From: Patescibacteria group bacterium
Lineage (GTDB): Bacteria > Patescibacteriota > Patescibacteriia > Patescibacteriales > JBAZCA01
DNA length: 64,000 bases
Reading direction: 5' to 3'
Assembly (NCBI GenBank): GCA_041671125.1
Contig: JBAZCA010000001.1
Location: forward strand, 72,120 to 136,119
The notes under the pieces are model-generated. The model worked only from the letters and a program-made list of their open reading frames with translations, did no database searches and had not been told where the DNA came from. This document shows, in pieces, positions 6,728-54,957 of the stretch (position 1 is its first letter; each line of letters begins with the position of its first letter). The position numbers and the translations under genes were made by a program.

Positions 6728-6814
6728 AAATTACAAATTAAAAATTACTAAAAATATCAATAATATTCATATATCAGGCAAAATTAGTAATTCGTAATTT
6801 TTAATTTGTAATTT
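6728..6814. repeat. AT-rich spacer hairpin (21-bp perfect stem)
   Basis: aaattacaaattaaaaattac (6728-6748) is the exact reverse complement of gtaatttttaatttgtaattt (6794-6814). The loop is 45 nt. Confidence 0.9.
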
Positions 6815-7643: not shown

Positions 7644-7841
7644 ACATTACCGCAGACCTTTATTATTTATGGATTTATAGTATAATATTATCAGCTGTTA
7701 GTAAAGGACTCGCTTTTTGGTTGTTTTGGCGCCCATCATGTCTTTTAAATTAATGACAATAAAATTTTTAATTTTATAATTTTTAATTTTTAAATTAACT
7801 CATTAAAAATTACAAAATTAAAAATTAAAAATTCTGCATAA

Positions 7842-14167: not shown

Positions 14168-14325
14168 AATTAATCAATGATCAATTATCAATTTACAATG
14201 ATCAATGAATTTTCAATTTTTCAATTAATCAATGAACTAAAAATTCGTTTGAAAATTAAATAATTGCTTAATTGAAAATTTACCTGCCTGCCGGCAGGCA
14301 GGTTGAAAATTGATCATTGATAATT
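14168..14325. repeat. AT-rich inverted repeat (family copy 2) enclosing a GC palindrome
   Basis: 36-nt core 14174-14209 is identical to 1519-1554. 3' arm ttgaaaattgatcattgataatt. Embedded palindrome acctgcctgccggcaggcaggt at 14282-14303. Confidence 0.85.
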
Positions 14326-16754: not shown

Positions 16755-18008
16755 TTATTCCCTCCTTAACGCTTCCACCGGATCCAGGCGGGCGGCTTTC
16801 CGCGCCGGATACAGCCCAAAAGCTAATCCGAATAAAAGCGAAAAACCGATTGCCACCGGATAAGCCCTGATTGGCACGGCAAATTCCCAGGCCAGACCGA
16901 AATTGGCGGCGAGAAGCGAAATAAGATAGGAAGCGATTATGCCAAAGACAATACCGATAGCGGCTCCGGCCAGGGTGATGAGAATTGATTCAAATAAAAA
17001 CTGGGCCATGATGTCGGAGTACTTGGCGCCGATTGATTTCCGCAGGCCGATTTCCGGAGTCCGCTCCGAAACCATGACGTACATGATGTTCATTACTCCG
17101 ACACCGCCGACAACGAGCGAGATAGCGACAATGGCAAGAAGGAGAAGCGTAAGGGCGCCGGTTACGGTATCCAAAATTTTCATCATCTCAGCCATGGTAA
17201 TAACAGCGAAATCGTCGCGGTCCGGGTCGGTGATGTTGTGATTTTCACGGACGATAAGACGGATTTCATCGGCGGTTTCATCAGCCAGGTTAACGTCGTT
17301 TAATTCATGGATTATGTACATGACATGGTCAATGCCCATGATCTTTTTCTGCAAAGTCCTGATCGGGACGTAAACATAATCGTCAAAATTCATGAAAGCC
17401 ATGGCTCCGCGCTCCTCCATCACCCCGATCACCCGAAATTTCTGCTTCCTAATCCTTATTGACTGTCCAATCGGGTCGCTATCGCCGAATAATTTTTCCT
17501 TTATTTTCGCGCCGAGCACCGCCACTTCCATGAGCGAGCGATCTTCGGCGTCGGTAAAAAACCGCCCAATCCCGATTTCCGACTGGTCAATGTCTATATA
17601 AGTCGCGCTGGTTCCAAAGAGAAAGGATTTTTTCAGTTCATTGCCATAGCTTACCTGCTCCTGCCCGAGAATCCCGGCGTAGCTTCGCGCCACGTTCGGC
17701 AGTTTATCAATATCTTCCATATCCGAAATTTTCAGGGTAGTTACCTGGACGCCCTGAGCTTGAGCCATCCCTTGCTCGGTGTCCGAAGCCCGGCCGGTGG
17801 CAGTTTTTTTCGGCACCCGGAATTCGGTTTCAATAATGTTGGTGCCGAAAGCCTCAACCTGGCCGACAACCAGCCGCCGGATACCCTCGCCCGCGGAAAA
17901 AACAATTATCACCGAAGCGATGCCGATAACAATTCCCAAAATCGCCAACGCGGTCCGGCCTTTATTCGCCCTCAGAGCTTTTGAAGCGATTTTTAAGGAA
18001 GAAAACAT
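16755..18008 (-). CDS. ABC transporter permease, MacB/FtsX family (paralogue B)
   Basis: 417 aa. N-terminal TM, large periplasmic-type domain, then C-terminal FtsX-like 3-TM bundle (ERTPEIGLRKSIGAKYSDIMAQFLFES). Same length and architecture as 21840..23093. Confidence 0.85.
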   Translation of the reverse strand: MFSSLKIASKALRANKGRTALAILGIVIGIASVIIVFSAGEGIRRLVVGQVEAFGTNIIETEFRVPKKTATGRASDTEQGMAQAQGVQVTTLKISDMEDIDKLPNVARSYAGILGQEQVSYGNELKKSFLFGTSATYIDIDQSEIGIGRFFTDAEDRSLMEVAVLGAKIKEKLFGDSDPIGQSIRIRKQKFRVIGVMEERGAMAFMNFDDYVYVPIRTLQKKIMGIDHVMYIIHELNDVNLADETADEIRLIVRENHNITDPDRDDFAVITMAEMMKILDTVTGALTLLLLAIVAISLVVGGVGVMNIMYVMVSERTPEIGLRKSIGAKYSDIMAQFLFESILITLAGAAIGIVFGIIASYLISLLAANFGLAWEFAVPIRAYPVAIGFSLLFGLAFGLYPARKAARLDPVEALRRE

Positions 18009-18083
18009 ATTTAATCTTCAATTTTTCAATCTACAATCTTCAATTATAAAAGCTGATTAAAGATTATTTTATTGAATAATTGA

Positions 18084-19004
18084 TTACAGCGGACTTTTTA
18101 TTTTTTCTAAAACATTTCCCGCCACCTTGGTATAAATTTGCGTCGTTTCCAGTTTAGCATGACCGAGGAGTTCCTGGATATACCTGATGTCGGTACCATT
18201 TTCCAGTAAATGCGTGGCAAAGCTGTGGCGCAGGCAGTGACAGGAAGCATGTTTTTTCACGCCGGATTTTTTTAAGGCATTGGAAAAAACTTTCTGCGCT
18301 GATCGCTCGGTTAACCGGTTCTTTTTACTTCCAGTCTCCGCGCCGCCATTTTTCAATTTTTCATCCACCGTTCCGGAATTCGCGTTTAGCACCCGGCTTC
18401 TCTCGCTTTCAAAAACATAATCATCCGGATTTTTACGGCAGACGTATTTTTTCAGGACGCCAATCATCTTTTCCGACATAATAGTTATCCGGTCTTTCTT
18501 GCCTTTGCCGGCGCGGATAAAAAGCATCATCCGGTCAAAATCAAGATCTTTGACTTTCAGCTTAACCGCCTCGGACACTCTTAATCCGGAGGAGTATATC
18601 AGTCCGAGCAGGAGCTTATGCTTCACATTCTGTATTGTCCCCAGTATTTTTTTAACTTCCTCTTTACTTAAGACTTCCGGCAGTTTTTTCGGCGTTTTTG
18701 CCCGCGGAATATTCATGAAAAACCGTCGGCAAAGAATTTTTTCAAAATAGAATTTCAGGGCGCTATAGGCGGTGTTCAGGGTGGATGCTGATTTGCCGTC
18801 ATCCGCCATTTTTTCAAGATAACCGCGGATATTCTCCGAAGTTACGTTTTTCGGCCCGGAATTTGCAAATCTTAGCGCGTCCGTGATATAATACAGATAA
18901 GATTTGATGGTCTTTCCGCTGAAATTACGCAATTTCATTTCCTGCTTCAGCTTTAATATCGGATCCTGGCTTGGATAATAATTCTGTTTCATACTTTGCT
19001 TCAT
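18084..19004 (-). CDS. Tyrosine recombinase, integron-integrase-like
   Basis: Catalytic set LRVSE / HCLRHSFATHLL / LLGHAKLETTQIYTKV. IntI1-like LKVKDLDFDRMMLFIRAGKGKKDR. Extra ~20-30 aa (ERSRVLNANSGTVDEKLKNGGAETGSKKNR) relative to XerC/D. Divergent from the cassette array. Confidence 0.7.
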   Translation of the reverse strand: MKQSMKQNYYPSQDPILKLKQEMKLRNFSGKTIKSYLYYITDALRFANSGPKNVTSENIRGYLEKMADDGKSASTLNTAYSALKFYFEKILCRRFFMNIPRAKTPKKLPEVLSKEEVKKILGTIQNVKHKLLLGLIYSSGLRVSEAVKLKVKDLDFDRMMLFIRAGKGKKDRITIMSEKMIGVLKKYVCRKNPDDYVFESERSRVLNANSGTVDEKLKNGGAETGSKKNRLTERSAQKVFSNALKKSGVKKHASCHCLRHSFATHLLENGTDIRYIQELLGHAKLETTQIYTKVAGNVLEKIKSPL

Positions 19005-19082
19005 ATCCCTCTTATGATTTAAAGTATCTACCGAAATTCTAGCTTATTTTAAACAACCAGTCAACGAGTTCGGATATAAGGA

Positions 19083-19089
19083 GTTAGGC
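19083..19089 (+). other. attI-like core site GTTAGGC (GTTRRRY)
   Basis: Located 79 nt from the recombinase start, on the cassette strand. TTAGGC complements the R'' box GCCTAAC of the first attC. Confidence 0.6.
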
Positions 19090-19141
19090 AAAATTGTGCT
19101 GATTTTTATTCATTAATCCTTAGCAATTAAATTTAAAACGC

Positions 19142-19723
19142 ATGAAGAAACTAACATTAATTATTTTTTTGTCTATTTTTGCGGCTATCTTTTCGGGTTG
19201 TACACAAAAGAACACTGAAACTAAAAATCTATCAAAGACTGACCCAATACAACAAACTGATGAAAAGCAAACCGTAGGATGGGTAAATTTTACAAGCCCG
19301 CTAAACGATTATACTCTGCAACACCCAAAAAACTGGATTACTGGTTCAATGGGAAAGTTATATACTACAATTAACAGCCCTGAAAACGAACAAAATAAAA
19401 AGGAGGGTGAGCAATATATGGATGATATTACAATTACTTACTATGAGAGCGGATATAATTTTGCCGGCTATTCAACTTTTATTGATTGGTTAAATGACAC
19501 CAGCAATCCTGATCGCAATATTTTCAACGTCAATAAAATTTCATTTGCTGGAATAGACGCCTGGGATATGGTAATGACCGGAAGTAGAACAGGTTATGTT
19601 ATCATGGTTGAAAATAACGAACATCTTTACCAAATCGGATTTAACAACAGGGTGTCAAAACCAAAGTTAACTAACATAGACAAAAAAATAATTAATTCGT
19701 TTAAATTTATAAACCAACAATAA
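19142..19723 (+). CDS. Cassette 1: lipoprotein, function unknown
   Basis: Signal peptide plus lipobox IFSGC. 193 aa. Followed by attC-like site 1. Confidence 0.65.
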   Translation: MKKLTLIIFLSIFAAIFSGCTQKNTETKNLSKTDPIQQTDEKQTVGWVNFTSPLNDYTLQHPKNWITGSMGKLYTTINSPENEQNKKEGEQYMDDITITYYESGYNFAGYSTFIDWLNDTSNPDRNIFNVNKISFAGIDAWDMVMTGSRTGYVIMVENNEHLYQIGFNNRVSKPKLTNIDKKIINSFKFINQQ

Positions 19724-19806
19724 AAATCAGCACAACTCAAGGGGGCGCTGCGCTTTCATTTTGGCTTTAATTTGATAAAATAATAATGAGGCTATAATGA
19801 ACCCTC

Positions 19807-19904
19807 GCCTAACAAGTGATAACCGGAAAATGCCTCAGCTCGGCATTTTCCCAAATTTGTTTTCCCTTCGGTCAAACGAACTTCGGTTATCGCTAACGTT
19901 ATAC
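19807..19904 (+). other. attC-like site 1 (98 bp)
   Basis: R'' GCCTAAC (19807-19813) and R' GTTATAC (19898-19904). Inner arms gataaccgga (19818-27) and ttcggttatc (19882-91). Central hairpin aaaatgcc/ggcatttt. Confidence 0.65.
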
Positions 19905-19939
19905 GATATGACAAAAATCCCTTTATTAGATAGATTTGC

Positions 19940-19969
19940 TTGAAAAAAGCATGGTTCTTGAGTTATAAT
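19940..19969 (+). promoter_or_regulatory. Candidate cassette-internal promoter
   Basis: TTGAAA (19940-45), 18-nt spacer, TATAAT (19964-69). Lies 20 nt upstream of the 19990 ATG. Confidence 0.45.
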
Positions 19970-19989
19970 ACAACAATTAACTAAAATAT

Positions 19990-20694
19990 ATGTTTGAAAA
20001 ATTATTAGGAAAAACAGGCTCCGCAAAAGAAGCACAAAAAGGAAATGATTTTGGTTTTGAATCTTCAATCAAGGACACGCGACAAGAAATAGACGACGTA
20101 ATAGATCCAAAAGCAACGAAACTTATCATAGAAAGAGAAGATGGTACTGCTGAAAATAGTTCATCTAAACAACGCTTCGATGTAAAGCTTTTGAATCTTG
20201 GACGAAGTCAAATTAATAAACCTTATAGCTATTATCGTTTGTCAAATTTGTCAAGAACAGATAACATTCAAGTTTTAATGAGAACTGATCAGGGTTTAAA
20301 AAATATTCGTCTTCCTGAACAGATGTTATCAAATATTGCAAGGTTCATCAGGGAAGATTCAAAACCAAGAGAAGAAAGATTTGATTGTGCTTCTTTTGCT
20401 CATCTTGTAAACGACATACCCTATGAATTTGGTAATTATCAAGCTAAAAATTGGGATATGCGTTTATTAAGCGACGAAAATAACCTTAAACCAGGTGATA
20501 CAATTGCCATAGCAAATACAGACAATCCTAATAATTTTTCAAACGGAGACATAACTCATTTCGGAATCTATTTAGGAGATAGTCTTTATCTTTCAAAGTT
20601 TGGAAATAAAGGAAAGTTAATCGTTGCGAATCTTGAAGAAATGAAAAAAGGATTTGGTGGAGACTATTTTTTTCAAGCAAATCCAAAAAAATAA
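19990..20694 (+). CDS. Cassette 2: NlpC/P60-like (papain-fold) cysteine peptidase/amidase family protein
   Basis: Cys motif RFDCASFAHLV and His motif GDITHFGIYLGDSLYLSKFG, in the order and spacing typical of NlpC/P60. No signal peptide. Confidence 0.55.
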   Translation: MFEKLLGKTGSAKEAQKGNDFGFESSIKDTRQEIDDVIDPKATKLIIEREDGTAENSSSKQRFDVKLLNLGRSQINKPYSYYRLSNLSRTDNIQVLMRTDQGLKNIRLPEQMLSNIARFIREDSKPREERFDCASFAHLVNDIPYEFGNYQAKNWDMRLLSDENNLKPGDTIAIANTDNPNNFSNGDITHFGIYLGDSLYLSKFGNKGKLIVANLEEMKKGFGGDYFFQANPKK

Positions 20695-20714
20695 GGAAGG
20701 ATTTTTGTCACATC

Positions 20715-20859
20715 GTATAACAGCGTGTATCTGGTTCGGCAGATTTGACGCAATTAGATTCAATAGGAATGTCAAATCAGCCTCTCCCAAATTTCGCAAA
20801 AAACAATTAGATTTTCAAAGGAATTTTTGCGAAACTTCAGATACACGCGAACGTTAGAC
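20715..20859 (+). other. attC-like site 2 (145 bp)
   Basis: R'' GTATAAC (20715-21) and R' GTTAGAC (20853-59). Perfect 11-bp inner arms gcgtgtatctg (20723-33) and cagatacacgc (20838-48). Additional internal stems. Confidence 0.7.
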
Positions 20860-20989
20860 AAAATGTGCTCGCTCCGCTCGCGTAATATTTCCTCTATATT
20901 TTTGAAAAGAATTTTTGGCAATTTTGCGGGTCGATAAATCAATGTCTCATAAAAAATAATCTAAGTAAATAATTAAATAAATTATATTT

Positions 20990-21208
20990 ATGCAAAAATC
21001 AAAAATATCAGGAATTTTAATGATTTCCTCGGCTATAATTCTCATAGTCTTAATAATTGGGTATGCTGTTTTATTTTCTGTTTTTGGAATCAATTCCGGT
21101 GGATCATTTTTAATGATCACCCCCCTACTTATAATCGCTATTGCCCTAATTATAGCTCTATCTTTTCTTTTACGCGCAGGAATTAAACAAATAAAAAATA
21201 AAAAATAA
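20990..21208 (+). CDS. Cassette 3: small two-TM membrane protein
   Basis: 72 aa, two hydrophobic stretches. This is the only ORF in the cassette orientation. Confidence 0.4.
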   Translation: MQKSKISGILMISSAIILIVLIIGYAVLFSVFGINSGGSFLMITPLLIIAIALIIALSFLLRAGIKQIKNKK

Positions 21209-21275
21209 TTTAACATTGCCTCATTATGAAGAATTGCCAAAAATTTTTTATTAGTACAAAATTTTTAGTTTCATC

Positions 21276-21473
21276 GCCTAACAACGCATATCTGGCTACA
21301 GGAAATTGACTTATAGATATTAATAAGGAGTGTCAATTTCCCTCCGCCCAAATTTTCATCCCTTAGTTTTGATGAAGGTTTAGGTAGAGATAATTAAACA
21401 AAGCATTGTCTGAAACAAAAGTTTATCCCGCTAAGTCGGGATGAAAACTTCAGATGATACGTAAACGTTAGAC
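21276..21473 (+). other. attC-like site 3 (198 bp, imperfect)
   Basis: R'' GCCTAAC (21276-82) and R' GTTAGAC (21467-73). Inner arms gcatatctg / cagatgatacg pair with a bulged G. Its 3' end (21448-21497) is nearly identical to that of site 2 (20835-20883). Confidence 0.5.
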
Positions 21474-21580
21474 AAAATGTGCTCGCTCCGCTCGCGATTT
21501 TCCTGAACGCGCGCGGGTGCTCCTCGTCCGGCTCTTTCGCTCGCTGCGCCTGCCTGCCGGCAGGCAGGCTCGCACACATC

Positions 21581-21587
21581 GTCTAAC
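21581..21587 (+). other. Orphan R'' box GTCTAAC of an eroded fourth cassette
   Basis: Exact complement of GTTAGAC at 21467-73. No partner R' box before tRNA-Arg. Confidence 0.4.
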
Positions 21588-21676
21588 TCGGGATATCCGA
21601 AATGCCCTCCAGCCGGTCGCTTCCTGCCTATCGGCAGGCAGGGAACCTGCAAAATAGAGTCTAGATGAAAAAATTG

Positions 21677-21748
21677 TGTCCCCGGCAGGAATCGAACCTG
21701 CATCACAAGTTCCGGAAACTTGCGTCCTATCCATTGAACGACGGAGAC
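21677..21748 (-). tRNA. tRNA-Arg (anticodon CCG)
   Basis: GTCTCCG...CGGGGACA acceptor stem. Anticodon arm CAAGT-TTCCGGA-ACTTG. T-arm GCAGGTTCGATTCCTGC. No encoded CCA. Confidence 0.9.
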
Positions 21749-21839
21749 ATACGAATTTTCAATTGCCAATTTACGATTTTCAATTAATAGTATGACGAAT
21801 TTAGCGGAAAAATGAATTTTTCACGCTTATCCGTGCTAC

Positions 21840-23093
21840 TCATTCATACCGCAAAGCTTCAATCGGGTCAAGCCTGCCGGCTTTATCCGCCGGATAAAGC
21901 CCAAAAATAAGGCCGACAAAACCGGAAACGCCGACCGCGAGCAGGATTGAAATAATTGAAATACTAAATTCCCATTCATAACCCAAAGCGCCTGCGACTA
22001 AGGCGACGAGAAAAGCAATCAGGGTTCCAAAAATTATGCCGGCAATCCCGCCGATCAGGGTTATGGCCATGGATTCAACGAGGAACTGGCTCAGGATATT
22101 CGCGCGCGTCGCTCCCACCGCTTTCCTTAAACCGATTTCGCGCGTCCGCTCCGAAACCGAAACCAGCATGATGTTCATGATGCCGATACCGCCGACTAAA
22201 AGCGAGATGGCCGCCATGGCCGCTAAAAAATATTTTAAAGCGTCGGTAACCGTTGTGATCGTGTCCAGCGCTTCGGAAGCGCTCTGCACGGTAAAATCGT
22301 CCTGGTCGCCCGAAAGGTCGGTTATGTTATGCTGTTCGCGCAAGGTTTTTTCTATATCGGCGATGACCCGGCCGATATTTTCTTCGCTATCCGCTTTGGC
22401 TCGGGCCATGGTAATATGGTTAATGCCGAGAATTAATTTTTGGGCGGTTGAAATCGGGATTAATATCTGGTCATCGTAATTCTGGAAAGCCACGGTTCCC
22501 TTTTCAGCCATCACGCCGATCACTTCAAAGCCGTGCTTTTTTATTTTTATCTTATGGCCGATCGCTTCGCTCTGGCCGAATAGATCCTCTTTTACTTTGG
22601 ATCCCAAAACCGCGACCCGGGCAAGACTCCTTTCTTCGTCTTCAGTAAAAAACCGCCCTTCTTCAACATTACTGGATTCAATTTCCGTGTAACTCGCTGT
22701 TGTTCCGTTCAGGTTCGTATCCAGCTCGTTATTTTCCCAGACAACGGTTTCCACGCCTTTGACGTAAGCGGCCGCGTTAAGAAGATTGGGGACGTTATTT
22801 TTTTTCTTTAGCGCCTCTATATCGTCGTAAGTAAGGGTAGTAATTACTATTCCCATAACCGAGGCCGGCGGGCCTTTGTCGTCCGACTTCCCCGGCAGGA
22901 TGCCGATCAAGTCGCTCCCGATGCCTTTAATCTGCGCGAGAATCAGGCTCTGCGCTCCGGCGCCGACCGCCATGATAATAATTACCGCCGCCACGCCGAT
23001 TATAATCCCGAGCATGGTCAAAAAGCTCCTTGTCTTATTAGCAAGGAGCGCGCGGAATGAATTTTTAAAGCTTTGGGTAAAAAAAGTAAGCAT
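21840..23093 (-). CDS. ABC transporter permease, MacB/FtsX family (paralogue A)
   Basis: 417 aa with the same architecture as 16755..18008 (ERTREIGLRKAVGATRANILSQFLVES). Confidence 0.85.
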   Translation of the reverse strand: MLTFFTQSFKNSFRALLANKTRSFLTMLGIIIGVAAVIIIMAVGAGAQSLILAQIKGIGSDLIGILPGKSDDKGPPASVMGIVITTLTYDDIEALKKKNNVPNLLNAAAYVKGVETVVWENNELDTNLNGTTASYTEIESSNVEEGRFFTEDEERSLARVAVLGSKVKEDLFGQSEAIGHKIKIKKHGFEVIGVMAEKGTVAFQNYDDQILIPISTAQKLILGINHITMARAKADSEENIGRVIADIEKTLREQHNITDLSGDQDDFTVQSASEALDTITTVTDALKYFLAAMAAISLLVGGIGIMNIMLVSVSERTREIGLRKAVGATRANILSQFLVESMAITLIGGIAGIIFGTLIAFLVALVAGALGYEWEFSISIISILLAVGVSGFVGLIFGLYPADKAGRLDPIEALRYE

Positions 23094-38400: not shown

Positions 38401-38477
38401 CTATTCAATTAAAAATTACGAATTATCAATTACAAATTAATTCGGAAAAATTTTAATTCGTAATTTTTAATTCGTAA

Positions 38478-42873: not shown

Positions 42874-42974
42874 AAAAATAATTCAAAATTAAAAGTTAAA
42901 AATTATGGAGTCCGCCCGAGGCGGACGGAATAATTTACCTAAATTTTGCATTTTTAATTTTTAATTTTGAATTT

Positions 42975-48910: not shown

Positions 48911-51148
48911 ATGAAATTAATCATCGTTGAGTCGCCAACCAAGGCCAAAACCATTTCCAAATTCATTTCCAAAGACTATAAGGTTGAGTCTTCTTTCGGG
49001 CATATTCGCGACCTGCCAAAAAGCGAAATGGGAATTGATATTGAAAACGATTTTACGCCCGAATACGTAATTCCGCTAAAAAGCCGGAAAACCGTAGCTA
49101 ACCTAAAGGCTTTGGCTAAAAAAGCGGAAAAAATTATCCTGGCCTCGGACGAAGACCGGGAAGGAGAAGCGATTGCCTGGCATTTAGCCGAAGCGCTGAA
49201 GCTTAATAAAAGCCAGACCCAACGGATTGTTTTCCATGAAATTACCAAGCCAGCCATACTTAAAGCCATTGAAAATCCCCGGGAGATCAATAGCCACCTC
49301 GTTGACGCCCAGCAGGCGCGCCGGGTTTTAGATCGCCTCGTCGGCTACGAGCTTTCGCCCTTTTTATGGAAAAAAGTCGCTCGCGGACTATCGGCCGGCC
49401 GGGTGCAATCGGTGGCCGTCCGGTTAATCGTTGAACGGGAACGCGAAATTAAAGCTTTTAAAGCCGAAGAATACTGGAGCGTCTCAGCCCTCCTGGCCCG
49501 GACCAAAGAAAAAGATTCCCAATTTGAAACCAGGCTCCATAAAATAAACGGCAAAACCGTTGAAAAACTCCAGATAAAAAATGAAGTTGAGGCCGATAAA
49601 ATCTTATCCGACCTTAAAGGCGCGGAATACAAGGTCGCGGAAGTCGTAAAAAAAGAAGGAACAAAAAACCCTCCCCGGCCGTTTACTACTTCCACCCTCC
49701 AGCAAACTGCCAACCGCTGGCTCGGATTCTCCGCCAAGCAGACCATGACCCTAGCTCAAAGGCTCTACGAAACCGGCCTTATTACTTACATGCGTACCGA
49801 TTCGGTAAACCTCTCGGAAAAATTCCTCGCCGACGCCGGAGTTTACCTTAATAACGCTTTAGGCGGAGAATACGCGCTTAAAACTCCGAACCGCTACAAA
49901 ACAAAAAGCAAAGGCGCCCAGGAAGCCCATGAGGCTATCCGGCCGACCGAAGCGGCCGATGACCCTGAATCCGTAAAAGACAAGCTGGAGTCCGGCCAGT
50001 ACCGGCTCTATAAACTGATCTGGCAAAGATCAATCGCCTCGCAGATGCCGCCAGCCAAGGTTGACGCTACGACCATAGACGTTGACGCGGAAAAAGACGG
50101 CCGAGCCGACTACCAATTCCGGGCGACCGGCCAGGTAATAAAATTTGACGGTTATTTAAAAATTTATCCGGAGAAAAGCGCCGAAATTGAATTGCCAGAA
50201 GTGGAAGTTGAAGAAGCGCTTGATCTTATAAAACTAAGTGGCGAAGAACATTTTACTAAGCCGCCGGCCCGCTACTCGGACGCCGGACTGGTTAAAGTTT
50301 TAGAAAAATACGGTATCGGCCGGCCGTCCACTTACGCCCCGACGATCGCGACGATTGAGACGCGGAATTACATGGAGCGGGACGAAAATAAAAAATTAAA
50401 GCCGACTGATATCGCTTTCGTAGTAAACGACCTTTTGGTCGCCCATTTTCCCAATATCGTTGACTTTCAGTTTACGGCCGGCATGGAAAACAATCTTGAT
50501 GAAATTGCCGAAGGGCGGCAGAAATGGCAGCCGGTGATAGGAGAATTTTATGTTCCTTTCCATGATAATTTAATAAAAAAGCAGGACGAACTGAAAAAAT
50601 CCGACATCATCCCCGAAGAAAAATCCGAGGAGGTCTGCGAAAAATGCGGCTCGGCCATGATCATTAAAACCGGACGCTGGGGAAAATATCTTGCCTGTTC
50701 CAATTTTCCGGAATGTAAAAATATCAAATCATTGCCTAAAGCGGGCGTAACCGCCGATCCCGAGACGGAAGCAAAGCTAAAAGCGCTTCAGGAAAAATAC
50801 AAGGACGAAGTTTGCGAAAAATGCGGCTCAGCGATGGTTATAAAAAACGGCCGCTTTGGACCGTTTTTAGCCTGCTCCGGCTATCCGAAATGCAAAAACA
50901 TAAAAAGCATTACTGAAAATTCCGGCTCTACCGGAATAAAATGCCCTGTCTGCGGAGAGGGGGAAATTGTCATGAAGCGAAGCCGACGCGGCCCCTTTTA
51001 TGCCTGCAACCGCTACCCGGACTGCAAAACTTCTTTTTCTTCTAAACCCACCGGCGAAAAATGCCCGGACTGCGGCGCGCTTCTTCTAGAAGCAAAAGAC
51101 GGCGGAGTTAAATGTTCGGCTAAAGGTTGCGGGTATAAGACCGCGTAG
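48911..51148 (+). CDS. topA: DNA topoisomerase I (four C-terminal zinc ribbons)
   Basis: MKLIIVESPTKAKTI (Toprim). ITYMRTDS active-site Tyr region. Four C-x2-C...C-x4/5-C fingers. ATG 48911 preferred over TTG 48887. The stop TAG lies inside a REP stem. Confidence 0.93.
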   Translation: MKLIIVESPTKAKTISKFISKDYKVESSFGHIRDLPKSEMGIDIENDFTPEYVIPLKSRKTVANLKALAKKAEKIILASDEDREGEAIAWHLAEALKLNKSQTQRIVFHEITKPAILKAIENPREINSHLVDAQQARRVLDRLVGYELSPFLWKKVARGLSAGRVQSVAVRLIVEREREIKAFKAEEYWSVSALLARTKEKDSQFETRLHKINGKTVEKLQIKNEVEADKILSDLKGAEYKVAEVVKKEGTKNPPRPFTTSTLQQTANRWLGFSAKQTMTLAQRLYETGLITYMRTDSVNLSEKFLADAGVYLNNALGGEYALKTPNRYKTKSKGAQEAHEAIRPTEAADDPESVKDKLESGQYRLYKLIWQRSIASQMPPAKVDATTIDVDAEKDGRADYQFRATGQVIKFDGYLKIYPEKSAEIELPEVEVEEALDLIKLSGEEHFTKPPARYSDAGLVKVLEKYGIGRPSTYAPTIATIETRNYMERDENKKLKPTDIAFVVNDLLVAHFPNIVDFQFTAGMENNLDEIAEGRQKWQPVIGEFYVPFHDNLIKKQDELKKSDIIPEEKSEEVCEKCGSAMIIKTGRWGKYLACSNFPECKNIKSLPKAGVTADPETEAKLKALQEKYKDEVCEKCGSAMVIKNGRFGPFLACSGYPKCKNIKSITENSGSTGIKCPVCGEGEIVMKRSRRGPFYACNRYPDCKTSFSSKPTGEKCPDCGALLLEAKDGGVKCSAKGCGYKTA

Positions 51149-51173
51149 AGACGCGATTAATCGCGTCTCTACG
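51144..51173. repeat. REP hairpin a (GTAGAGACGC family)
   Basis: cgtagagacgcg-attaat-cgcgtctctacg. Contains the topA stop codon (51146-48). Confidence 0.9.
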
Positions 51174-51253
51174 GATGTAATTTTACCGTTTCGTCCGGAC
51201 GCAATCATCCGCACCGCGCGCGCGTCATCCCGCGGCGCAACCCGATTAACCGC

Positions 51254-51282
51254 GTAGAGACGCCCCGTCGGGGCGTCTCTAC
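51254..51282. repeat. REP hairpin b
   Basis: gtagagacgcccc-g-t-c-ggggcgtctctac. Confidence 0.9.
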
Positions 51283-51293
51283 AAAATGCGTCT

Positions 51294-54218
51294 TTACCTT
51301 TTCGCTCCTGAGTAAGCAATCGCTCTCACAATATCCCAGGCCATCGCCGATTTCGGCGCGTAACCGTAGATGTTTTTGAAGAATTGGATGGATTTTTTCT
51401 CTGAGTTCAGATTTCTATTTGTTGGCCTGAGGCCATAGGAAATAACGGCAATGGCGTTTTGGTCGCGTGGGTTATTCTTGTCCGGCAGTCTCAGGTAAAT
51501 CTTTTTGAACGCGGCCGAGGCATTAGCCTCGGTTTTTTCGTTCTTTTGGGCGGGCCATCGGCCGTTAGCGATTTTAATTATGTCCTGCCAGTCAATTTCA
51601 GTGGCCGGGTTCCGGCCGTAGGCCGATTTAAACGAGTTTACTACCCCTGAGCGCTCGCCCGAGCCGAGGATTTTAGTGGTGTCCGTGCCATTGGTGATAA
51701 AATTGGTTAATACATCTTTCTTGGCGGCGACTATCTCTTTGGCCTCGGACATTAGTTTTTCCAGCGTAGAGATGCCCCGCCGGGGCGTCTCTACGCTGTT
51801 TTGCCGGGTTGCTGTTTTATTCTCCTGATTATCACTAACATCACTTCCCTCACTATCATCTCCTGCCGCGTCATCACCCGGGCTGGTATCGTTATTACTG
51901 TCATTGCCAGTATTGGCAGTGGCGCTGTTGCTATTTTGGCTATTCAGTAAATAGACCGGAATTGTATTGCAGTCCCGGGTATAGTTAAACGTGTTGGAAT
52001 TGGTAGTATTGCCGTTATTATCCACGGCTATGACATACCAACTATGGGAACCGCAGGATAGGTTCTGACCCGGGGTTTGGGAGGCGGCAATATTGGAGAT
52101 ATTGTCAGAGTCCAGGGTATTGTCTATGTAGAGCTGGTATTTAGCTATTCCTGATTCCGTGTCAGACGAGGCGTTCCAGCTGAGGGTCGGGCGGGAGTCG
52201 GAGTTAACCGTATTATTGGCTGGCGAAGAGGCAGTAAAACTCGCCGGGCTGGTTATATCTTTTTCCAGTTCAAATGTATGGGTAGAATAGCCGCCGGAGT
52301 AGGTGAATTGGACAATGCCCGAGGAGTCGGAGAGGCAGGTCAGGTTGGTGCCGTTTCCGTAACTGGTTTGGCAGGTGGTAGCGCCATAACCGGTGATGGC
52401 AGTCGTAGTCGCCGTATTGTCAATCTTGAACGTGTAGTAGCTATCCGGGGCTAAATCGCCAATGGTGTAAACCGTAGAGGTGGCGTGGGTATTTCCCGCT
52501 CCCTCGGTTGAGGTCGCCGTCCAGGATTTATTCTTGTCGCCCGCGGTTTCCCAGGTATTAATATTTAAATCCATGAATGCCGAGGTGGAGGCGGTGTAGT
52601 ACCCGCCTCCGGCGGGTACTACCGAGAAGTTAGAGGTAGCAATGGTGTCAGCGGTGGTAGTGGCGACGAGAGCCCGGTATTTGCCGTTAGAATATATTCG
52701 GACCGAGCCGGTTTGGGGGATAGCGTTAGAGCCCACGGTATATGGCGGTTGGTATTCGTAAGCCCCAATGTCGGGAGTGCCGTAGATGGGGTTGCCGGCG
52801 TAGTCGGTGGTGAGGGAGACGTCGGTGCCAGAGTCGATGGCGGGGGAGGTGGGGTCGGGGATGTAGGTGCCAGTTTGGAAGAGGGGGTCAGATGTCATTT
52901 CGTTTGTTGACGTAACAGTCCCTGATGTCTTCGCGGTATTACCATAAAACCCATTATAATCTACCGTGGGCGTTCCGGCAACCTGTTGAATCCCCATCGC
53001 TAAGTTCATAAATTCATTATTCTTGACCACCAGAGTTCCCTGAGCATAGATACCCTTTCCGTCTTTTGTCGCTTCATCGTAAAAAACATTATTAATGATA
53101 CTGCACGTTGCGTTGGTTCTACAGGCAACCCCAAACTTCGCACTTGCTATGGTGTTAAATATATTATGGCTTATGTTTGCGGTAACAGTGCCGGTCCCTA
53201 CCGTGTCAATAATATGATCCGTGATACCATTAAAGATTGACCGTTTGACTGTTAGCGCAACCGCCGCCCCTTGTATTTCTATACCTGCCGCTCCTGTATT
53301 GGTTGCATTTCCGTTGAGCGTCAATCCGTTGATGGTCATGCTTCCACCATTCAAGTTGATATATTTAGTAGTTGTCCCAACGGGAATATTGGATATTGTT
53401 ACTGTATTTATGGTCAGATTAACATTATTGTTTCCTGTGACCAATATTATTGGATTAGTTAGTCCACCACCTGTTTTATTAATAGTAAGACGGTTATATG
53501 TCGCGTTTATAGTTCCTGCCACATCGGTATGAAATACATCCTCAAGCGTTGTGCCACTGATCGTAATATCGTTGGCAGTAAGGGTTGTTGTGCTATCCGA
53601 TGCTACGGTATTAACCCCTTGGGAATTTCCCGTGAACGATCCTGTATTAATGACCGCTGTTCCCCCGTGCATTGAAAAGCCATCATCGGTGTTATTATTT
53701 GCGCTTATATTGTTAAACGTGACAGTTGAGTTCCCTTCCATCTGGAACCCTTGGTTCCCCATAGAATTGCACGATACATTACTCACTGTTCCAATGGATG
53801 CTCCCCTAAACTGTATTCCATCAGTGGTCATATTGGTTATAGTGCCATTCATAATAACTATACCCGTGCGACCATTTATATCAATTCCTGTAATTGTATT
53901 TACACCATCTCCACTGATTGCAAATCCGCCAAGGTTAATCGTGATGTCATTTCCCCCCACATTCAAGACATCCCCCGCATTGGTACACGAGAGATTTCCA
54001 GCCAGTGTATATGAGGAGGTTACGGTATCACCACAGTTACAGGCAGTCACTCCACCACAATTAGCCGCACTCGCCTTCCCCACTCCCAAAACAAAAAAAC
54101 TTCCCAAAAATAACAGGAAGAAAAAAACAAATCTGGAAAATTTTAGATTTTGAGGTTTAGTTAAGAGAGAGAGAGAGAGAGAGACGGCTTTCATGTTTTT
54201 GTATTTATCCCGACGCAT
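51294..54218 (-). CDS. Large secreted right-handed beta-helix (PbH1-type) surface protein with conserved C-terminal domain
   Basis: Signal/TM segment FVFFFLLFLGSFFVLGV. Many G-x-N/T-rich ~22-aa turns (IMNGTITN, FNNISANNN, ...). Low-complexity linker. The start could be ATG 54218 or 54194. An in-frame REP lies at 51765-96. Confidence 0.7.
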   Translation of the reverse strand: MRRDKYKNMKAVSLSLSLLTKPQNLKFSRFVFFFLLFLGSFFVLGVGKASAANCGGVTACNCGDTVTSSYTLAGNLSCTNAGDVLNVGGNDITINLGGFAISGDGVNTITGIDINGRTGIVIMNGTITNMTTDGIQFRGASIGTVSNVSCNSMGNQGFQMEGNSTVTFNNISANNNTDDGFSMHGGTAVINTGSFTGNSQGVNTVASDSTTTLTANDITISGTTLEDVFHTDVAGTINATYNRLTINKTGGGLTNPIILVTGNNNVNLTINTVTISNIPVGTTTKYINLNGGSMTINGLTLNGNATNTGAAGIEIQGAAVALTVKRSIFNGITDHIIDTVGTGTVTANISHNIFNTIASAKFGVACRTNATCSIINNVFYDEATKDGKGIYAQGTLVVKNNEFMNLAMGIQQVAGTPTVDYNGFYGNTAKTSGTVTSTNEMTSDPLFQTGTYIPDPTSPAIDSGTDVSLTTDYAGNPIYGTPDIGAYEYQPPYTVGSNAIPQTGSVRIYSNGKYRALVATTTADTIATSNFSVVPAGGGYYTASTSAFMDLNINTWETAGDKNKSWTATSTEGAGNTHATSTVYTIGDLAPDSYYTFKIDNTATTTAITGYGATTCQTSYGNGTNLTCLSDSSGIVQFTYSGGYSTHTFELEKDITSPASFTASSPANNTVNSDSRPTLSWNASSDTESGIAKYQLYIDNTLDSDNISNIAASQTPGQNLSCGSHSWYVIAVDNNGNTTNSNTFNYTRDCNTIPVYLLNSQNSNSATANTGNDSNNDTSPGDDAAGDDSEGSDVSDNQENKTATRQNSVETPRRGISTLEKLMSEAKEIVAAKKDVLTNFITNGTDTTKILGSGERSGVVNSFKSAYGRNPATEIDWQDIIKIANGRWPAQKNEKTEANASAAFKKIYLRLPDKNNPRDQNAIAVISYGLRPTNRNLNSEKKSIQFFKNIYGYAPKSAMAWDIVRAIAYSGAKR
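51765..51796. repeat. REP hairpin c, in-frame inside the beta-helix protein gene
   Basis: gcgtagagatgccccgccggggcgtctctacgc. Translated as ...SVETPRRGISTLE.... Confidence 0.9.
54164..54184. repeat. (AG)10 dinucleotide microsatellite within the 5' coding region
   Basis: agagagagagagagagagaga encodes SLSLSL, between the candidate start codons and the signal-peptide core. Confidence 0.95.
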
Positions 54219-54263: not shown

Positions 54264-54291
54264 GTAGAGACGCATTGCAATGCGTCTCTAC
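54264..54291. repeat. REP hairpin d (45 nt downstream of the RAYT stop)
   Basis: gtagagacgca-ttgcaa-tgcgtctctac. Confidence 0.9.
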
Positions 54292-54336: not shown

Positions 54337-54957
54337 TCACATCCAAATATTCTCCACGTTATTCCTGTCACGTTCCCACATCGCCGGATTGTTAATAATA
54401 TATTCCCGGATTCGGTTTAAAGATTCGTCGTTCCTGATAATGTGATCGTAAAAACGGGATTGCCAGGCGAAATTAGGATATTCGGATTTCCAAATTTTTT
54501 TCGTGCAGACCGATTTAATTTGATTTATAATTGAACCCAATGAATTTGGTTTCCATTGCGGATTATATCCGCCACGTTTCAATTTATCATCAACCGCAAC
54601 CATCGCGGTGGTAGAGACGCCCCGGCGGGGCGTCTCTACCGTCGCGCGGGGCGTCTCTACGGATGATTTGATCTTGCACAAAATTTCCAAAATTGCGTGC
54701 AAATGATTCGGCATAATTATCCATTCATCCAAAATTACATTCTGACGAATTATCGGCGTTTGCGACAATTCCTCCTGAACGATTTTCCCGATATCATTTA
54801 AACTCATTTTTCCGTTTTTAACCTCTCCAAAATAATGTTCTCTGTCTTTCGTGCAAATCGTTATGAAATATACGCCGTTTTGACTATAATCATAGCCTTC
54901 CAATCTGGCGGATTTGATGCGAAATTTATTTTTAAATCTTTGTGATATTGGCAACAT
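54337..54957 (-). CDS. REP-associated tyrosine transposase (RAYT; IS200/IS605 Y1 HUH family)
   Basis: YDYSQNGVYFITICTKDREHYFG. HUH motif IMPNHLHAIL. Tyr helix WQSRFYDHIIRNDESLNRIREYI. Interrupted in-frame by REP sequence. Confidence 0.8.
   Translation of the reverse strand: MLPISQRFKNKFRIKSARLEGYDYSQNGVYFITICTKDREHYFGEVKNGKMSLNDIGKIVQEELSQTPIIRQNVILDEWIIMPNHLHAILEILCKIKSSVETPRATVETPRRGVSTTAMVAVDDKLKRGGYNPQWKPNSLGSIINQIKSVCTKKIWKSEYPNFAWQSRFYDHIIRNDESLNRIREYIINNPAMWERDRNNVENIWM
54611..54660. repeat. REP hairpin e plus an extra half-site, in-frame inside the RAYT gene
   Basis: gtagagacgccccggcggggcgtctctac followed by cgtcgcgc-ggggcgtctctac. Translated as SVETPRATVETPRRGVSTTA. Confidence 0.9.

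Follow-up and report, generated by a model that had tools for sequence, protein, structure and literature searches.

Nested inverted repeats spanning cassette open reading frames suggest an end-to-end fold of integron cassettes in candidate phyla radiation bacteria

Background

Why should a perfect inverted repeat enclose the whole open reading frame (ORF) of an integron cassette? The question is raised by a 64,000-nt stretch of DNA from a Patescibacteria group bacterium (assembly GCA_041671125.1, contig JBAZCA010000001.1, positions 72,120 to 136,119 of the forward strand; hereafter the window), in which an integron-integrase-like tyrosine recombinase gene is accompanied by three cassettes and the lipoprotein gene of the first (cassette 1) is bracketed by a 17-bp repeat. 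The initial annotation of the window had linked this repeat to the cassette and the adjacent recombinase system, a link that our analysis retains, and had offered three interpretations (an invertible segment, pairing of the 5' and 3' ends of an mRNA, or the footprint of ORF capture into a cassette) that survive only in part. In the canonical attC site, or 59-base element, the inverted repeats R''/R' and L''/L' form a hairpin of bottom-strand single-stranded DNA (ssDNA), and the first six bases of a cassette (TTRRRY) pair with its own R'' in the circle. Here, we compare the repeat with those in related integrons of the candidate phyla radiation (CPR) and propose, with moderate confidence, that it is the outer helix (P1) of an end-to-end fold typical of the cassettes of this CPR integron group.

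The 17-bp repeat is the outermost of several nested arms in cassette 1

The repeat was confirmed as annotated: TTGTGCTGATTTTTATT at 19094-19110 is the exact reverse complement of AATAAAAATCAGCACAA at 19719-19735, with 608 nt between the two arms, and the right arm does overlap the lipoprotein stop codon (TAA, 19721-19723). The left 17-mer begins 4 nt (AAAA) after the R' box GTTAGGC (19083-19089), and the sequence is absent elsewhere in the window and was found beyond it in homologous cassettes only. The claim that the repeat exceeds chance was upheld, as none of 2000 dinucleotide shuffles and none of 2000 codon shuffles reached the long-range perfect inverted-repeat content of cassette 1, and the 17-mer alone gave a self-BLAST E value of 8e-4 in a 3-kb region. 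Perfect long-gap inverted repeats of at least 15 nt in the window lie nearly all within cassettes 1 and 2. Moreover, the 17-bp pair is the outermost of the nested arm pairs in cassette 1, which had gone unnoticed in the initial annotation together with the same pattern in cassettes 2 and 3. The features of cassette 1, all on the + strand, are as follows.

19083..19093, +: attI-side R' box GTTAGGC (19083-19089) and the 4-nt spacer AAAA, replaced by GAAA in relatives; first base of cassette 1 at 19084
19094..19110, +: 5' arm of the outer helix P1 (left 17-mer), with covariation across 9 cassettes
19128..19137, +: weak middle arm of 10 nt, partner 19700-19709 (E = 9); not kept in the orthologue and may be chance
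19142..19723, +: cassette 1 ORF, a PsbP_2-like lipoprotein of 193 aa with lipobox FSGC (Pfam PF18933, E = 1.5e-7)
19156..19179, +: 5' arm of the inner helix, in signal-peptide codons; 23/24 with 19673-19696, and 21/21 for 19156-19176 with 19676-19696
19673..19696, +: 3' arm of the inner helix, in the codons for NIDKKIIN, a C-terminal motif conserved in the family
19700..19709, +: weak middle arm, 3' partner of 19128-19137
19719..19735, +: 3' arm of P1 (right 17-mer), overlapping the stop codon, with covariation
19736..19806, +: GC-rich trailer module CTCAAGGGGGCGCTGCGCTT...ACCCTC, occupying the place where most cassettes have only CATC

The trailer module (CTCAAGGGGGCGCTGCGCTT...CACCCTC, 45-70 nt) recurs in conserved form in some of the cassettes (the window and, among the compared loci, L011, L083 and L092-L114), where it separates the 3' arm from R''. 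RNAalifold gave only a weak, G.U-rich hairpin without covariation for this module, and a terminator-like call was weak and confined to the window copy. On one JGI contig, the lipoprotein cassette block occurs twice (L081, 237-821 and 2530-3114, 2293 nt apart); either a block of three cassettes was duplicated in tandem, or the assembly is at fault.

ORF-bracketing arms share a fixed layout across related CPR integrons

We fetched 80 loci around relatives of the integrase and took the cassette-side ORFs from 58 CPR integrases. The initial annotation had proposed looking for ORF-bracketing repeats in other cassettes, and these proved to be massively present: the 5' and 3' zones were joined by a perfect repeat of 15 nt or more in 60 of 224 cassette-side ORFs versus 5 of 854 ORFs on the other side of the integrase, and in 0 of 224 when the 5' and 3' zones of different ORFs were mismatched. 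Both arms lay strictly inside the ORF in 28 of 224 cassette-side ORFs; the opposite side gave 3 of 854, and codon shuffling left 1 of 224. Similarity between the neighbouring sites attC(n-1) and attC(n) could give part of such a signal; it was controlled for by these ORF-internal arms and by inspection of four cases, all of which had clean ORFs, attCs outside them and arms in the coding sequence (e.g., ATGATAAAAAAACCAAAAA / TTTTTGGTTTTTTTATCAT). Where an ORF held several blocks, these were nested in 22 cases, side by side in five and crossing in one, with arms at a median distance of 108 nt from the start of the ORF and 107.5 nt from its end.

The position of the outer arm was then defined from the R' box and its GAAA-like spacer only, with the downstream complement required from exactly the next base. 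At this exact position, 56 of 247 anchors had a partner of at least 10 nt, versus 4.9% at control offsets. Among the 56 listed partners, the spacer was GAAA in 50 and AAAA, ATAA, GTAA or ATAT in five (one row was not R'-anchored), and the 3' arm was followed by CATC in 39 and by CTCAAGGG... in five; 31 of the 39 CATC partners abut an R'' that is the 7/7 complement of the cassette's own R'. These arms comprise 36 distinct sequences in 18 loci, each complementary to its own partner only. The general layout thus reads R'(GTTRRRY)-GAAA-arm ... ORF ... arm'-CATC-R'', with the cassette starting at G|TTRRRY, and cassette 1 of the window is a variant with the GC-rich module 19736-19806 in place of CATC. 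P1 extends the R-box helix of attC through a TC/GA pair and an AA/CA 2x2 mismatch by a further 10-24 bp, and its two strands are adjacent only in the circularised (excised) cassette. Upstream of recombinase relatives from archaea (DPANN) and Bacteroidota, which share 34-38% identity, no such architecture was found, so the cassette helix does not accompany every relative.

The arms covary and are conserved beyond their surroundings

The covariation set was gathered by a metagenome scan with the trailer motif, not with the arms, which returned 24 DNA stretches and nine distinct cassettes with both ends. Their arms (e.g., TTGCAAACCAGCC, TTGCAGATGTGCTTTT, TTGCCAGCCCGCC, TTGAAAGTTTTTTA and TTGTTCTAATTTTT) each pair with their own partner, and the cargo is unrelated by BLASTP in six of these nine trailer-sharing cassettes. 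In the joined alignment of the nine, 95.1% of cells were paired, compared with 40-51% in slid controls; 13 of 16 helix pairs had changed on both sides, and the covariation score was reached by 0 of 500 shuffles.

The initial annotation had also asked whether orthologous cassettes carry the repeat. Both main arm pairs are preserved in a 76%-identical lipoprotein cassette from Falkowbacteria, which has an internal place in its array, and 20 of 21 positions of the inner arm are retained. Identity between the window and this orthologue was 93.1% in the arms and 91.8% in attC versus 76.4% in the ORF body and 70.8% in the non-arm leader and trailer, and third codon positions were identical at 19 of 20 sites in the arms versus 97 of 172 elsewhere (p = 5e-4). 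Arm, diverged and again arm stretches alternate along the comparison, which is therefore not a recombination mosaic of ends versus centre. More distant lipoprotein homologues (41-63%), used as a negative control, have another attC type and no arms and gave no covariation. The C-terminal motif DKKII.SFKFI is common to both groups and, because the armless homologues share it, the comparison indicates that the tolerant signal-peptide codons are the part that was moulded to complement the constrained 3' segment. The helices are near-perfect, with 15 of about 965 positions mismatched, and they break off sharply, the mismatches at their ends being of random type; this fits block-wise inverted copying by template switching followed by selection. 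Together, these comparisons indicate that the 17-bp repeat is a maintained, co-varying structural helix. The proposed capture footprint thus stands in so far as the repeat belongs to the cassette architecture, and fails as the passive scar of a single capture event.

Arms of cassettes 2 and 3

Cassette 2 contains five nested arm pairs, and its repeat content likewise exceeded all shuffles. The features of cassettes 2 and 3 are the following.

19909..19920, +: 5' arm of cassette 2 P1, TGACAAAAATCC, after R' and GATA; partner 20699-20710
19933..19948, +: second arm of cassette 2, 16 nt; partner 20668-20683
19940..19969, +: promoter-like TTGAAA-18-TATAAT (11/12, near-consensus sigma-70-type) in the cassette 2 leader, conserved in the orthologues L120 and L121
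19990..20694, +: cassette 2 ORF, 234 aa, weak NlpC/P60 match, holding three left and four right arms
19992-20010/20526-20544, +: third pair of cassette 2, nested inside the ORF
20023-20037/20385-20399, +: fourth pair of cassette 2, nested inside the ORF
20051-20066/20353-20368, +: fifth pair of cassette 2, nested inside the ORF
20699..20714, +: 3' arm of cassette 2 P1, GGATTTTTGTCA (20699-20710; partner 19909-19920), and CATC spacer (20711-20714)
20906..20923, +: bracket arm of cassette 3, 17/18 with 21232-21249, around the ORF 20990-21208
21232..21249, +: bracket arm of cassette 3, 3' partner of 20906-20923

Given the near-consensus promoter in its leader and the conservation of this promoter in L120 and L121, cassette 2 probably drives its own expression and does not rely on a promoter of the array, and its outer arms lie upstream of or over this promoter. 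The right arms of cassette 2 are in conserved coding sequence, and the left arms are in an N-terminal extension that varies by block indels among the 86% orthologues: of the three left arms in the window, L120 (also a cassette) has only the third and L121 only the first. A compensatory change from T:A to C:G was seen in the inner arm of L121. In L121 (2400-4000), the 86% orthologue of the cassette 2 gene is followed by a PsbP-like ORF (ending ..SFEFIE) inside a pyruvate:ferredoxin oxidoreductase operon. This pair has no attC and only remnants of cassette ends, and the same two protein families adjoin in the window; the L121 genes may be ex-cassettes fixed at a secondary site.

The integron locus and its host

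The recombinase and the attC sites of the array are located as follows.

18084..19004, -: integron-integrase-like tyrosine recombinase, 306 aa (Pfam Phage_integrase and SAM-like N domain), divergent from the cassette array
19807..19904, +: attC1, from R'' GCCTAAC (19807-19813) to R' GTTATAC (19898-19904), with a hairpin fold; cassette 2 starts at 19899
20715..20859, +: attC2, from R'' GTATAAC (complementing cassette 2's own GTTATAC) to R' GTTAGAC; first base of cassette 3 at 20854
21277..21473, +: attC3, from R'' GCCTAAC to R' GTTAGAC, beyond which lie a truncated unit and a tRNA gene

The top NCBIfam match of the recombinase was TIGR02249, integron integrase (230.8 bits versus a cut-off of 265), in two stretches that skip the IntI-specific insert region; NF040815 (XerA/integron integrase) scored 224.4, over its cut-off of 220, and the PDB matches XerA 4a8e and Vibrio IntI4 2a3v were about equal. 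Its position and orientation fit an integron integrase, and its relatives come from Moranii-, Falkow- and Parcubacteria metagenome-assembled genomes (MAGs), which identifies the host as a CPR bacterium. Each of the three + strand cassettes is bounded by attC-like palindromes (R'' RYYYAAC ... R' GTTRRRY) that fold into hairpins at attC1, attC2 and attC3, with dozens more in related loci. The first bases of a cassette (TTRRRY) complement its own R'' in cassette 1 (GTTAGGC/GCCTAAC) and cassette 2 (GTTATAC/GTATAAC), and with one mismatch in cassette 3. The lipoprotein cassette is independently mobile, being the first after attI in the window and internal, with other neighbours, in Falkowbacteria contigs.

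Cassette 3 and the truncated fourth unit begin with a 30-nt direct repeat (GTTAGACAAAATGTGCTCGCTCCGCTCGCG, 20853-20882 and 21467-21496), and the latter ends near an orphan GTCTAAC (21581-21587). The integron abuts a tRNA gene (21677-21748, minus strand) and sits between paralogous MacB/FtsX-type permease genes (16755-18008 and 21840-23093, both 417 aa). An Rfam scan of 18000-23000 at E <= 1 returned only the tRNA and sub-threshold noise, and the arms matched no family. Many contigs with integrase relatives (L001, L002, L004, L009, L012 and others) stop 70-250 nt upstream of the integrase gene. Assemblies thus seem to break systematically where these cassette arrays start, and CPR integrons are therefore probably under-represented in MAGs. 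Elsewhere in the window, a GC-rich palindrome resembling a repetitive extragenic palindromic (REP)-type intergenic repeat (GCCTGCCTGCCGGCAGGCAGGC) occurs in two dispersed copies (14282-14303 and 21548-21569), and a palindrome family containing GTAGAGACGC (51144-51173, 51252-51267, 51781-51796, 54264-54291 and 54610-54640) has the same look; AT-rich, short-range inverted repeats of the type AATTAAAAATTAC are intergenic (6728-6814, 7778-7833, 38407-38472 and 42880-42973).

Pairing at the DNA or the RNA level and rival explanations

We consider it somewhat probable that the arms act as a cassette-wide, end-to-end fold on ssDNA with a role related to recombination. A DNA fold is favoured because the helix is continuous with attC, follows the own-R'/own-R'' rule and has no G.U signature, and further because of the junction folds, the position of the cassette 2 promoter and the lagging-strand GC skew. 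With DNA parameters, the circular junctions folded 15-25 kcal/mol better with a cassette's own leader than with that of its neighbour, and in the cassette 2 junction fold the bottom strand reached -66.5 versus -60.6. The GC skew suggested that the bottom strand of the cassettes is the lagging-strand template, an orientation that favours attC folding and gives higher excision (Loot 2017, PMC5371416). The conserved A/C of the GAAA/CATC spacer forms a T.G wobble on the bottom strand only and is a mismatch on the RNA-sense strand. Neither G.T nor A.C was enriched at helix ends (G.T, 19 observed versus 23 expected), and the mismatch pattern argues against a typical RNA helix. Also in favour of the cassette-wide fold, homologous cargo occurs without arms in cassettes of the other attC type.

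Pairing between the 5' and 3' ends of the cassette transcript, the second interpretation in the initial annotation, stays as a rival; we regard it as rather unlikely, including its variants taken jointly (sequestering of the start region that silences or tunes translation of stored cassettes, protection from exonucleases, or RNase III sites in a polycistronic array transcript). In its favour, the arms enclose the whole ORF in the minimum-free-energy RNA structure of cassette 1 (z = -3.2), many left arms lie over the ATG or within the first 60 nt of the ORF, and P1 of cassette 1 would be in the RNA if, as is presumed, transcription of the array starts from a promoter near attI. Against it, G.U pairs are not enriched within helices or at their ends, with two interior G.T pairs in about 965 positions; the helix is continuous with the R-box stem of attC and obeys the own-R'/own-R'' rule of a DNA recombination unit; the spacer A/C is mismatched on the RNA-sense strand; and translating ribosomes would unwind the ORF-internal arms. 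In cassette 2, moreover, the outer arms lie upstream of or overlap the promoter and are therefore absent from the cassette's own transcript. Pairing thus appears more likely at the DNA level, with the mRNA level being less well supported.

A further alternative is that the arms are a non-adaptive by-product, in which cassettes that are often single-stranded beside a strong attC hairpin acquire functionless inverted copies by template switching. The sharp edges of the blocks, their perfection and the random mismatches at their borders are as expected from such a process, as are the block indels of left arms among the 86% orthologues of cassette 2 and the placing of arms in sequence-tolerant regions that copy constrained ones. 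A pure mutational product, however, should decay rather than sit positioned to the nucleotide, whereas the arms are conserved like attC where the surrounding synonymous sites have diverged, compensatory double changes keep the pairing, and dozens of unrelated cassettes have P1 at the same fixed place with conserved GAAA/CATC flanks. We therefore judge this explanation improbable.

Inversion of the ORF between the 17-bp repeats by the adjacent tyrosine recombinase or by homologous recombination, which would give the junction TTGTGCTGATTTTTATTGTTGGTTTATAAA (left arm, then inverted interior), is suggested by the location of the repeat beside a tyrosine recombinase with a faint NCBIfam likeness to tyrosine-type DNA invertases (44 bits versus a cut-off of 222). 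No recombinase core is common to the arms, which differ in every cassette (36 distinct sequences) and are alike only in the GAAA/CATC that flanks them, and the orientation is the same in all six independent assemblies (window, L081-L084 and L106). A two-site switch is at odds with cassettes that hold several nested repeats, inversion would turn a largely promoterless ORF antisense, and 17 bp is short for RecA-dependent inversion. The invertible segment of the initial annotation is consequently abandoned as highly improbable. Still less credible is that the 17-bp perfect termini around one ORF in an AT-rich (33% GC) region are those of a small transposon or miniature inverted-repeat transposable element carrying the lipoprotein gene, or a chance occurrence. 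There is no target-site duplication (flanks GCAAAA / CTCAAG), the 17-mer is limited to these two places in the window, and identical flanks (R' and GAAA on one side; CATC or the GC module and attC on the other) carry different arms, which makes the unit an integron cassette; chance is excluded by the shuffles and the mismatched-pair control. Inversion, transposon terminal repeats and chance were thus all rejected for the 17-bp repeat on the grounds of no common core, no target duplication and the shuffles, respectively.

Several observations weigh against a recombination-related ssDNA fold. The interior wobbles (two G.T versus six A.C, p = 0.29) are too few to assign a strand; RNA would form the perfect Watson-Crick blocks just as readily as DNA, and the arms are used in the RNA fold of cassette 1; the many 5' arms over start codons or early codons would also fit translational control. 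The leader arm in the covariation set was located by its complementarity, which is a selection bias, although as an independent check it always lies right after R' and GAAA. The helix-by-helix symmetry is weak (Pearson 0.73, driven by outliers; Spearman 0.21, not significant), and cassette 3 has no helix abutting its R boxes, its bracket being 23-43 nt further in. P1 in a linear array would compete with neither attC, yet its compatibility with the antiparallel geometry of the synapse is not obvious. Finally, Vit 2021 (PMC8191803) states that, even for Vibrio, it is not known if an excised cassette has one strand or two.

A proposed mechanism and its relation to known systems

Under a recombination-related ssDNA fold, pairing would act on single-stranded cassette DNA, most likely on the bottom strand as for attC. 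This might take place in the excised circle, where leader and trailer are neighbours and P1 would lengthen and insulate the attC hairpin for attI x attC insertion, or on the lagging-strand template of the array, where P1 would loop out the ORF and join the flanking attC hairpins for excision. The nested perfect blocks inside the ORF would lengthen the rod. Template switching of the quasipalindrome type would produce the arms as blocks with sharp edges, one stretch of the cassette being copied into another that tolerates sequence change (for instance, a signal peptide, an N-terminal extension or an untranslated region, UTR), and selection on the mobile cassette would then retain them. More tentatively, and on balance doubtfully, the whole cassette may be a structured ssDNA element in CPR integrons, either a rod-like, largely self-paired circle or a stretch of the lagging-strand template with a looped-out ORF that lets neighbouring attCs meet. 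In this reading, selection on the mobile cassette would have rewritten UTRs, signal peptides and N-terminal extensions of the cargo proteins to complement their own 3' coding sequence.

The arrays resemble those with canonical attC sites in lying next to an integrase, in their R'' RYYYAAC and R' GTTRRRY boxes, in the own-R'/own-R'' rule (31/39 perfect) and in the occurrence of the same cassette at different array positions. Canonical attC complementarity ends at the 7-bp R boxes, whereas in the CPR cassettes it runs 10-24 bp further past the GAAA/CATC spacer, with arms 300-1900 bp apart in the array and extra perfect blocks in coding sequence. Template-switch mutagenesis (Ripley-type quasipalindrome models) would account for the perfect, sharp-edged inverted blocks and the block indels of the CPR cassettes. 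Its classical cases are short-range and unselected, whereas the blocks in the CPR cassettes are up to about 700 nt apart, positioned and conserved.

For long chromosomal attC families such as Vibrio cholerae repeats (VCRs), ssDNA folding, cassette length and strand orientation relative to replication govern cassette dynamics, as may hold here, and excision hinges on successive attCs being folded at the same time (Loot et al. 2017, PMC5371416). VCR length, by contrast, stems from a variable terminal structure inside the hairpin and not from pairing across the ORF, and no helix bridging neighbouring attCs is described in that study. We also compared the cassettes with IS200/IS605 elements, which are ssDNA elements with hairpins at both ends (PMC5027513), and with rod-like circular nucleic acids such as viroids. 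The CPR enzyme is a tyrosine recombinase and not an HUH enzyme, the cassette ends pair together instead of each forming its own hairpin, and the cassettes have no autonomous replication. The literature that we searched held no published description of ORF-spanning cassette helices, an absence that is not proof of absence elsewhere. The integron and the R-box complementarity rule are thus known, and the ORF-spanning continuation of the stem, the GAAA/CATC flanks and the blocks in coding sequence seem to be undescribed.

Conclusions

A positioned, co-varying helix contiguous with the attC R box and reinforced by perfect blocks within the genes implies that the entire cassette is probably single-stranded and folded at a stage visible to selection, and P1 offers a concrete, testable handle on this folding. 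The sequence rule R'-GAAA-arm ... arm'-CATC-R'' delimits cassettes in CPR genomes, where assemblies often break, and could help the design of synthetic attC-based recombination parts. The findings also suggest a route by which the DNA structure of a mobile element may constrain, and even create, protein sequence. If the reading of the whole cassette as structured ssDNA is true, these arms would be the first sequence-level evidence on the question of single- versus double-stranded cassettes and a case of protein sequence being moulded by a mobile element to suit the folding of its DNA.

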